Part shown: positions 24,946 to 26,253 of the stretch, one piece after another
Layout of the letters: each line of letters starts with the position of its first letter
How positions within the stretch are numbered: the stretch's first letter is position 1
NCBI GenBank assembly: GCA_963977015.1
Contig: CAXBMO010000001.1
Location: forward strand, 160,001-224,000
DNA: 64,000 nt
Origin: an uncultured bacterium
GTDB taxonomy: Bacteria > Verrucomicrobiota > Verrucomicrobiia > Verrucomicrobiales > DEV007
Direction of reading: 5' to 3'
Translations under genes and position numbers: made by a program
The notes under the pieces: model-generated
Told to the model about the DNA's origin: nothing
Seen by the model: the letters and a program-made list of their open reading frames with translations, nothing else
The model's database searches: none

Positions 24946-25692
24946 ATGAGCGACTCCGCAAACCAGCCGCCCCGCCCCACAAACAAGACTTCGACAGTTC
25001 CTCTCAAAAAGGAGACTGTGCGGATTACGCTAAAGGCAAAGCCCGGTGAAGGTGCCGGCCCTGCAACTCCAGCAGCCGTTCCACCGCCAAGACCAGCGGG
25101 TGCTGTTCCTGCTCCGGTTCCGACGGCCCCCAAACCAGCCGCTCCAAAACCGGGAGGCATTCCAGCTCCTGCTCCACCAAGGCCAGCTGGCGCGGTCGCT
25201 CCCCCACCGGCCGGTGGGGCTCCAGCTCCAAAGCCTGCACCTCTTCCGACGGCTCCAAAGCCAGCCGCTCCAGTGGGGGCGAAGACGATTCCGTTGGCGA
25301 AGCCACCAGCACCCGGTGGCGGGATCCCTGCTCCGGCGCCAAAAACCGCTCAACTTACTCCCGCTCCCAAAGCTCCCACAGGTGCACGGACCATTCCTTT
25401 GGCCAAAGCGCCTGGTGTTGGTCCTGCGACACCAGCGCCCGGCGGAGCAACTCCGCTGCCCAAGGCCACGGTAAAGCTTCAAAAAACGCAGCCAATGTCA
25501 AAGGGGGCGCCGACCACGGCCCTCAAGCCACCTTCGGCTGCTGGTGCTGCAGCCACGGCGTTTGATGATGACGAGTACGAATATGAAGAGTACGAAGAAG
25601 AAGCCGGTTTGATGCCTTTCGCAGTGATCGTGCTGATTCTTGCCGTGATCGTCCTGTTGATTGAGCTGTTTACCAAATTCAGCGGATCCTAA
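24946..25692 (+). CDS. Pro/Ala-rich disordered protein with acidic patch and C-terminal TM anchor
   Basis: KKETVRITLK motif, PAPKP/TIPLAK repeats, DDDEYEYEEYEEE, terminal hydrophobic helix. Confidence 0.85.
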   Translation: MSDSANQPPRPTNKTSTVPLKKETVRITLKAKPGEGAGPATPAAVPPPRPAGAVPAPVPTAPKPAAPKPGGIPAPAPPRPAGAVAPPPAGGAPAPKPAPLPTAPKPAAPVGAKTIPLAKPPAPGGGIPAPAPKTAQLTPAPKAPTGARTIPLAKAPGVGPATPAPGGATPLPKATVKLQKTQPMSKGAPTTALKPPSAAGAAATAFDDDEYEYEEYEEEAGLMPFAVIVLILAVIVLLIELFTKFSGS

Positions 25693-25715
25693 GTCCCATT
25701 TCCAATTCTGAAGTC

Positions 25716-25793
25716 ATGCCATTTGCTCTCATCCTCCTGCTCGTATCCCTCGCTGTCCTGCTTATCGAGGTGATGACGATGCTTAATTCCTAG
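25716..25793 (+). CDS. 25-aa single-TM microprotein paralogous to the upstream gene's tail anchor
   Basis: MPFALILLLVSLAVLLIEVMTMLNS vs MPFAVIVLILAVIVLLIELFTKFSGS: 12/25 identical, ungapped. Confidence 0.7.
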   Translation: MPFALILLLVSLAVLLIEVMTMLNS

Positions 25794-25926
25794 GACTTTC
25801 CGTTCGGGTTTTTGAGATTCTCGTCTGCAATGCCAATCACTGGGCCTTGACAGGGCGCAGTAATTCCTGATCATGATGCTCGCTTCCAGTCTGTAAGCTG
25901 GAACGCATACGAACCGACACAAGATC

Positions 25927-26253
25927 ATGGCAAATTTAATCGAACTTAATGCAGAGAACTTCGCTCAAGAAGTGGAACAAAGTGACGTACCGGTTCTCGT
26001 TGATTACTGGGCTTCCTGGTGCGGACCTTGCCGCATGATTACTCCTATTCTTGAAGAGCTTTCTCAAGATGTCGGTGACAAATTCAAGATCGCGAAGGTC
26101 AATGTCGATGAGCATCAGGACCTCGCTGCTAAATTCGGCGTTCGCAGCCTGCCGACCCTCCTCTTCTTTAAAGGCGGAGAAGTTAAAGACACCGTAGTTG
26201 GCGCAGGAACTCCAAAAGCAGGGCTCCTTCAGAAGCTCGAAGCGCTTGCCTAG
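25927..26253 (+). CDS. trxA: Thioredoxin
   Basis: VLVDYWASWCGPC; FGVRSLPTL. Confidence 0.98.
   Translation: MANLIELNAENFAQEVEQSDVPVLVDYWASWCGPCRMITPILEELSQDVGDKFKIAKVNVDEHQDLAAKFGVRSLPTLLFFKGGEVKDTVVGAGTPKAGLLQKLEALA

Follow-up and report, generated by a model that had tools for sequence, protein, structure and literature searches.

The 25-codon reading frame at 25716..25793 (+) of the window, i.e. of the whole stretch of 64,000 nucleotides analyzed here, is, as judged by sequence comparison, a genuine gene, missing from annotation, that encodes a one-helix membrane peptide, and not a decaying duplicate. The comparisons further indicate that this peptide accompanies the protein encoded upstream, subsequently designated the long protein, across Verrucomicrobiales, either free or fused to it as its membrane anchor. 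Taken as a whole, the data are best explained by a coding gene for a 25-residue single-helix membrane peptide that would assemble with the long protein, an explanation that we consider rather probable.

Locus layout and coding signal of the short gene

The locus comprises the following features, the two reading frames of the pair being taken from the list of open reading frames.

24946..25692 (+): gene for the long protein, 248 aa, Pro/Ala-rich (open reading frame; alignment A1); its tail-anchored form is designated type I
24985..25032 (+): N-terminal motif KTSTVPLKKETVRITL, residues 14–29, (nearly) invariant in the alignment and the hallmark of the family
25564..25602 (+): membrane-adjacent acidic stretch DDDEYEYEEYEEE, residues 207–219; the alignment has an EEEWEEEYEE column block in relatives
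25612..25692 (+): C-terminal membrane anchor MPFAVIVLILAVIVLLIELFTKFSGS, residues 223–248, and stop codon; of the microprotein class by profile scores
25663..25665 (+): codon of the anchor Glu at helix position 18
25693..25715 (+): 23-nt spacer between the long gene and the microprotein gene, without Shine-Dalgarno-like sequence; not conserved in relatives
25716..25793 (+): microprotein gene, 25 codons starting with ATG plus the stop codon TAG, encoding MPFALILLLVSLAVLLIEVMTMLNS, a single hydrophobic helix; open reading frame with coding-type conservation
25767..25769 (+): codon of microprotein Glu18, conserved
25847..25874 (+): promoter-like site of the form TTGACA, 16 nt, GATCAT, behind the microprotein gene and ahead of trxA; weak, as 2 sites were found vs. 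1.0 expected in shuffles
25927..26253 (+): trxA, thioredoxin (PF00085, E 2.8e-32)

Upstream of the pair, metH is located on the opposite strand, and trxA follows downstream. The long gene and the short ORF are read in different frames, as (25716-24946) mod 3 = 2. On the + strand, a terminator scan detected no site in the intervals from the long gene through the microprotein gene to trxA, and promoter-like sites were absent from the 23-nt spacer of the window; the long gene and the microprotein gene are probably co-transcribed. In case the site at 25847..25874 is real, trxA might possess a promoter of its own. Scanning the locus with Rfam returned a 10-bit chance match and no Rfam element. The microprotein ATG is not preceded by a Shine-Dalgarno sequence in the 23-nt spacer of the window. 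Genome-wide, such sequences are not enriched, being present at 10.2% of 1565 starts vs. 12.5% in a control stretch (1565 long ORFs on the first 12 contigs of genome G000, the start being approximated by the first ATG). The long-ORF starts of G000 favor C at positions -1 and -2 (0.40 and 0.37).

The peptide resembles the membrane anchor of the long protein, whose C-terminal end reads ...EEEAGLMPFAVIVLILAVIVLLIELFTKFSGS. In its ungapped alignment with the C-terminal 26 residues of the 248-aa protein, 12 of 25 residues are identical (M, P, F, A, I, L, V, L, L, I, E and T), and comparison of the two copies in the window yields a pS of 0.79 and a pN of 0.32. The ungapped 12/25 match with differing codons, which an earlier note on this DNA had described, is thus borne out. 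In a six-frame motif search of the 6.9-Mb genome, matches were obtained at the anchor and microprotein sites alone, and a profile of 21 microproteins detected the same two sites in this genome (E 6e-11 and 3e-6) in addition to one weak match (E 0.08). The likeness of anchor and microprotein exceeds chance. With an ATG start, a length within 50 codons and one helix (hydropathy 2.96 over 17 residues), the predicted product falls among the small membrane proteins. By its sequence kinship to a domain of a larger protein (12/25 identity and a common profile class) it is also a candidate microProtein.

To characterize the evolution of the short ORF, five genomes were aligned, four of the window's genus and one of another. 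The ORF aligns codon for codon in these genomes, and both spacers flanking it are unalignable with many indels. Pairwise pS values of the ORF ranged from 0.48 to 0.78 and pN values from 0.05 to 0.26; dN/dS was 0.04–0.16 in seven of the eight computable pairs and 0.42 in the eighth, two further pairs being saturated. Between G000 and G003, 15 of 75 bases differ, distributed 3/0/12 over the codon positions (binomial p 2.9e-4). A larger set of 55 within-genus pairs from 12 genera gave a pS of 0.573 and a pN of 0.144 for the microprotein (pooled pN/pS 0.25), with differences distributed 310/128/663 over the codon positions. The neighboring annotated helix is under the same constraint in these pairs (pS 0.604, pN 0.168). 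All 60 microprotein copies start with ATG. The microprotein evolves under purifying selection, which substantiates the earlier proposal of selection on the peptide: the ORF aligns between unalignable spacers and pN is low in relation to pS. It is the mostly synonymous change, the universal ATG and the unalignable flanks that lead us to regard the frame as a gene rather than a decayed duplicate.

Distribution across Verrucomicrobiales

A profile of 21 microproteins (alignment A3) was used to scan 91 genomes of the window's family. Matches were obtained in 78 of these, and 49 genomes, representing 21 of 30 genera, had a short-open-frame match at E<=0.01. Among the remainder, the end of the long protein was the sole match in 26 genomes, three had a weak short-frame match only and 13 had none. 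Loci were then fetched, 40 from the family scan, mostly chosen for having matches, and 17 from other families; as the loci are related and were partly chosen for their matches, counts over them overstate independence. In a second family, each of the 11 fetched loci has the ORF behind the long gene, and position 18 of the peptide is Asn. The ORF was also present in one genome of a third family, with Gln at position 18, and in 5/5 loci of two further families, where position 18 is Q, I, Q, E and H, respectively. The profile scan undercounts at the level of the order: at E<=0.01 it detected 9 of 18 second-family genomes, and two of the missed genomes did carry the ORF.

A profile-free detector was also applied, which accepts frames of 18–45 codons that start with ATG between -30 and +130 nt from the stop of the long gene on the same strand and have a hydropathy >=2.3. 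It reported the ORF in 112 of 148 loci vs. 0 of 148 on the antisense strand. Inspection by eye showed that five of the 36 loci missed do carry the ORF; they had escaped because the hydropathy is lower, the start lies 197 nt downstream or a stop interrupts the long gene. After removal of duplicates, the ORF is present at 102 of 129 distinct Verrucomicrobiales loci, and in the genomes scanned it was not found away from the long gene. The microprotein is 21–28 residues long across the family. Over 60 loci, the spacer between long gene and ORF measures 11–102 nt (median 39), and the frame of the ORF relative to the long gene is distributed 27/18/15. The microprotein gene is almost never annotated; by exact look-up, one of 20 tested copies was present, unnamed, in a collection of 15 billion proteins.

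These data also bear on the idea of a decaying partial duplication or an untranslated chance ORF, for which one could invoke the lack of a Shine-Dalgarno sequence and of annotation as well as the length of 25 codons only. We consider it next to impossible, given that the frame is intact with its ATG in 60/60 copies and that the peptide is kept with synonymous sites near saturation. Furthermore, the flanks are unalignable, the ORF is conserved across several families and the antisense control yielded 0/148. The earlier note had named absence or frame breakage in relatives, together with lack of translation, as the mark of a decayed duplicate, and as regards the relatives the opposite was found, with conservation across genera and families.

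It is likewise very improbable that the ORF yields a trxA leader peptide, a type I toxin or a read-through or frameshift product of the long gene. The ORF does lie upstream of trxA in the window, and the peptide is small and hydrophobic like type I toxins. However, a thioredoxin motif on the same strand was detected downstream in 42 of 68 loci and is absent in 26, where the ORF still accompanies the long gene; a trxA leader is rejected on this account, the ORF being independent of trxA. A type I toxin, for which patchy and often multi-copy occurrence and an antisense RNA overlapping the gene would be expected, fits poorly because the gene is single-copy, syntenic and vertically kept; in addition, no Rfam RNA is present and the genome contains a single further helix of this class, the anchor of the long protein. 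Read-through or frameshifting from the long gene is excluded by the varying frame relation (27/18/15). The order long gene, microprotein gene, thioredoxin gene represents an old synteny, which is found in three families and broken in many genera.

The long protein and the free and fused forms of the helix

The long protein of the window consists of a hydrophilic Pro/Ala-rich region, an acidic stretch and one C-terminal membrane helix, and lacks an N-terminal hydrophobic segment. With the helix at residues 223–244 of 248 behind 220 hydrophilic residues, it has the architecture of a tail-anchored protein. Its N-terminal motif is highly conserved: T15, T17, V18-I27 and L29 are invariant in 16/16 sequences (alignment A1), and use of KTSTVPLKKETVRITL as search pattern retrieved 163 relatives. 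Related motifs (GAKTIPLAKAP, PLPKATVKLQ) are repeated in the Pro/Ala-rich region at about 25270–25470. By these features, the long protein looks like a membrane tether presenting short peptide motifs in the cytoplasm. Searches of Pfam and NCBIfam matched no family for the long protein or the microprotein of the window, and a test for sorting signals (PEP-CTERM, LPXTG) revealed neither a PEP or LPXTG motif nor a matching NCBIfam or Pfam model. The 85 relatives of the long protein considered are all unnamed or ‘hypothetical’, one of them with a single Pfam match, and its clusters in the protein atlas are an unnamed ‘hypothetical protein’ of Verrucomicrobiota. Within the searches performed, no member of the family turned up outside Verrucomicrobiota; relatives occur in 34 of 41 related genomes, and 80 public loci place them in Verrucomicrobiales.

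Two forms of the long protein can be distinguished, the tail-anchored type I as in the window and the bitopic type II, in which 35–80 residues follow the helix. This tail is conserved (e.g. ...SQK.F.QDK.G.PSWAVP..DYKHG.YEKV...) in L012, L017, L114-L121, L127-L135 and L141-L152 and absent from the form in the window; presumably it constitutes a small periplasmic domain. As read from the sequences, the tail fixes the topology of type II, with the N-terminus in the cytoplasm, and because relatives carry this 35–80-residue tail, the N-terminus of the window protein should be cytoplasmic as well. Two loci showed peculiarities. In L053, at about 2000, an in-frame stop lies inside the membrane helix of the long gene, and the frame and the microprotein gene continue beyond it, reflecting either a sequencing error or a pseudogene. 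In G072, a second long-frame match to the helix profile on another contig (C146:1597-1668, open frame of 290 aa) may represent either an additional long gene or a duplication introduced by assembly.

The presence of the free ORF is related to the form of the long protein. At all 27 distinct loci without free ORF, the long protein is of type I and ends in a Glu-bearing anchor. Consequently, every distinct locus (129/129) possesses at least one helix of the microprotein class, free or fused, and the window carries both. The assignment of the anchors to this class was assessed by profile scores. All 38 type I anchors score higher on the microprotein profile than on the profile of type II helices, by margins of 0.4 to 25 bits overall and 6.4 to 25 bits at loci without free ORF; the anchor of the window reaches 34.3 bits vs. 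25.5 bits on the bitopic-helix profile. In leave-one-genus-out controls, 11/11 type II helices and 23/23 microproteins were assigned to their own class. The microprotein is nearer to the microprotein of another genus than to the long helix of its own in 24 of 26 genera, and the microprotein of the second family scores 0.436 with microproteins of the window's family vs. 0.301 with its own long helix.

The tethered helix itself differs between the two situations. Where a free copy is present, it often lacks Met1 or has Glu18 replaced by Q, T or G; where the free copy is missing, both Met1 and Glu18 were kept in 9/9 cases. In G020, anchor and microprotein share 22 of 26 residues. A recent duplication was rejected as explanation, since the synonymous sites are saturated (pS 0.70, pN 0.09). 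A tree of 53 helices over 22 columns, from which L014, L132, L134 and L142 were omitted due to indels or misregistration, contained no well-supported branch.

Which of the two forms came first is suggested by their distribution. Terminal anchors occur only in part of one family and in one further genome, and the free microprotein occurs order-wide. Because the free form is so widespread and the restricted anchor belongs to the microprotein class, the anchor probably derives from the microprotein and not the reverse. The earlier note had taken the microprotein for a copy of the upstream anchor; the homology stands, and the direction of copying has probably to be inverted. The ancestral state throughout the order would then have been a type II long protein plus free peptide. 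A copy of the microprotein may subsequently have been joined to the long gene within part of one family, generating the tail-anchored form, and the free copy may later have been lost in some genera, in which case the window, with fused and free copies, would be an intermediate. This order of fusion and duplication is read from the distribution and the profile scores.

A further reading is that the long gene is a nested two-product gene. According to this idea, the 25-residue helix would be at the heart of the system's function and the free peptide would always be made, at loci that lost the ORF by internal initiation at the in-frame AUG of the anchor (GL-M-PFA...), and the ratio of free to tethered helix would tune the number of Pro-rich arms per bundle. 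We give this reading a slim chance. Met is kept in 22/22 anchors at loci without free ORF, a set that overlaps the above 9/9 set in genomes. Where the free ORF is present, 6 of 12 genera include at least one genome that has lost Met1 (by-genus hypergeometric 0.05, kinship being ignored).

Position 18, a proposed assembly and related systems

Met1 and Glu18 are invariant in the 21 microprotein copies of profile alignment A3. The Glu that the earlier note had called conserved is hence confirmed for these copies, and the statement does not extend to other families, which have Asn, Gln or His at the same position. Among 87 distinct peptides, position 18 is E in 44, N in 24, Q in 10 and H in 1, i.e. 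polar in 79, and in the same number (79/87) the first strongly polar residue after position 8 falls exactly at 18. Eight of the 87 lack a polar residue at this position. As far as the sequences tell, the charge of Glu18 is not required. Because E, N and Q exchange freely under continued constraint, position 18 likely has a role in inter-helix hydrogen bonding, rather than serving as a charge, proton or cation site.

The exchange of polar residues at position 18 and the alternation of fused and free forms are the reasons for proposing that the helix bundles with the long protein. The peptide would reside in the cytoplasmic membrane and pack both with helices of its own class and with that of the long protein, with the polar side chain at position 18 acting as donor or acceptor of an inter-helix hydrogen bond. 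In the genome of the window, free and tethered helices could form mixed bundles, and the free peptide might set the number of cytoplasmic Pro-rich arms per bundle. The earlier suggestion of an anchor-only partner is reasonable, given that free and fused forms stand in for one another without exception. Complex prediction with anchor residues 200–248 (A1) and the microprotein (A3) returned a score of 0.02, which counts neither for nor against assembly, the microprotein chain being shorter than the 30 residues for which the tool is calibrated. A contact between polar residues of long helix and microprotein would not be universal, since Thr or Gly occupies position 18 of the long helix in two genera whose microprotein keeps Glu.

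These exceptions speak for an alternative, a small membrane protein with a function of its own or with a third partner, which shares the operon and makes no contact with the helix of the long protein. No co-variation or gene conversion between anchor and microprotein was detectable within genomes (0.389 in the same genome vs. 0.376 in different genera; permutation p 0.20), which would suit such a protein and counts against the proposed bundling, and in several genera the constraint on the microprotein equals or exceeds that on the long helix (in one genus pN 0.04–0.23 vs. 0.11–0.39). However, 102 of 129 distinct loci have the ORF strictly tied to the long gene, the remaining 27 carry the helix in covalent fusion, and in the genomes scanned the ORF never occurs apart from this gene. 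A pair that is fused here and split there points to a physical or tight functional link, and we regard an independent function as unlikely.

Assembly with the long protein could also be inhibitory, i.e. the free helix could act as a competitor, a dominant-negative ‘microProtein’ that lowers the activity of the long protein by capping or diluting its bundles. Peptide and anchor share a sequence class, and free and tethered forms coexist in the window. The relationship matches the defining logic of eukaryotic microProteins, as given in PMC9638782. However, the position downstream on the same strand is fixed and the 23-nt spacer contains no promoter-like site, so that the peptide is probably made together with its supposed target. 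Moreover, the peptide likewise accompanies long proteins whose helix is of the different, bitopic class, and loss of the ORF solely where the helix is fused looks like a requirement rather than inhibition. A competitor thus appears quite improbable, and we favor a peptide that assembles with the long protein as a constituent.

A full-text search with the motif of the long protein retrieved 0 papers, and the literature searches revealed no description of the pair of long protein and microprotein, with supplements and subscription journals outside their scope. The gene is conserved across several families of an order and yet almost never called; gene callers with a floor of 30 codons miss what is probably a conserved partner gene here. 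The locus offers a clean natural experiment, as each of 129 distinct loci has the helix in free or fused form. One polar position alternates between E, N, Q and H. It further provides a directly testable candidate for a bacterial membrane-helix ‘microProtein’ and a handle on an uncharacterized, order-wide Verrucomicrobiales protein with an invariant N-terminal motif.

Several known systems share individual features with this pair. ElaB, YqjD and YgaM are tail-anchored proteins of bacteria, and the long protein of the window resembles them in having a cytoplasmic N-terminal region, as predicted, and one helix at the C-terminus. It has no sequence relation to these proteins (no Pfam match), and we know of no free copy of the anchor for any of the three. 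Association of membrane helices driven by polar residues was reportedly demonstrated with model peptides by the Engelman and DeGrado groups in 2000–2001, and the papillomavirus E5 protein with its Gln is a further example. The common trait is a single Asn, Gln or Glu in an otherwise apolar helix, with E, N and Q interchangeable at a fixed position; this is a mechanistic analogy and not a family, and in the present case it is drawn from the sequences.

Rosetta-stone pairs, reportedly described by Marcotte et al. and by Enright et al. in 1999, exist as two genes in one set of genomes and as a single fusion gene in another. Here, too, every locus is in one state or the other, but one partner has about 25 residues only, and a third state, fused plus free, is common. 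Small membrane proteins acting as subunits or regulators of larger membrane proteins include AcrZ, KdpF, CydX, MgtS and MgrB. The window peptide agrees with the bacterial small membrane proteins of a 2025 review in that these have <50 residues and one hydrophobic helix, are usually missed by annotation and are encoded beside or together with their partner (PMC12648545). A term search of the review (PMC12648545) gave no occurrence of ‘duplication’, ‘mimic’ or ‘polar residue’. In contrast to these proteins, the window peptide shares the sequence class of its putative partner's anchor and alternates between free and fused forms, and the partner would be an uncharacterized Pro-rich protein rather than an enzyme or transporter. 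The microProteins of plants and animals are, according to PMC9638782, small single-domain proteins akin to one domain of a larger protein, which they can bind thereby; likewise, the window peptide is evolutionarily related to part of a larger protein. It differs from them in that the shared ‘domain’ is a single membrane helix, in a bacterium, and that its gene would lie in the same transcription unit as the gene of the larger protein.
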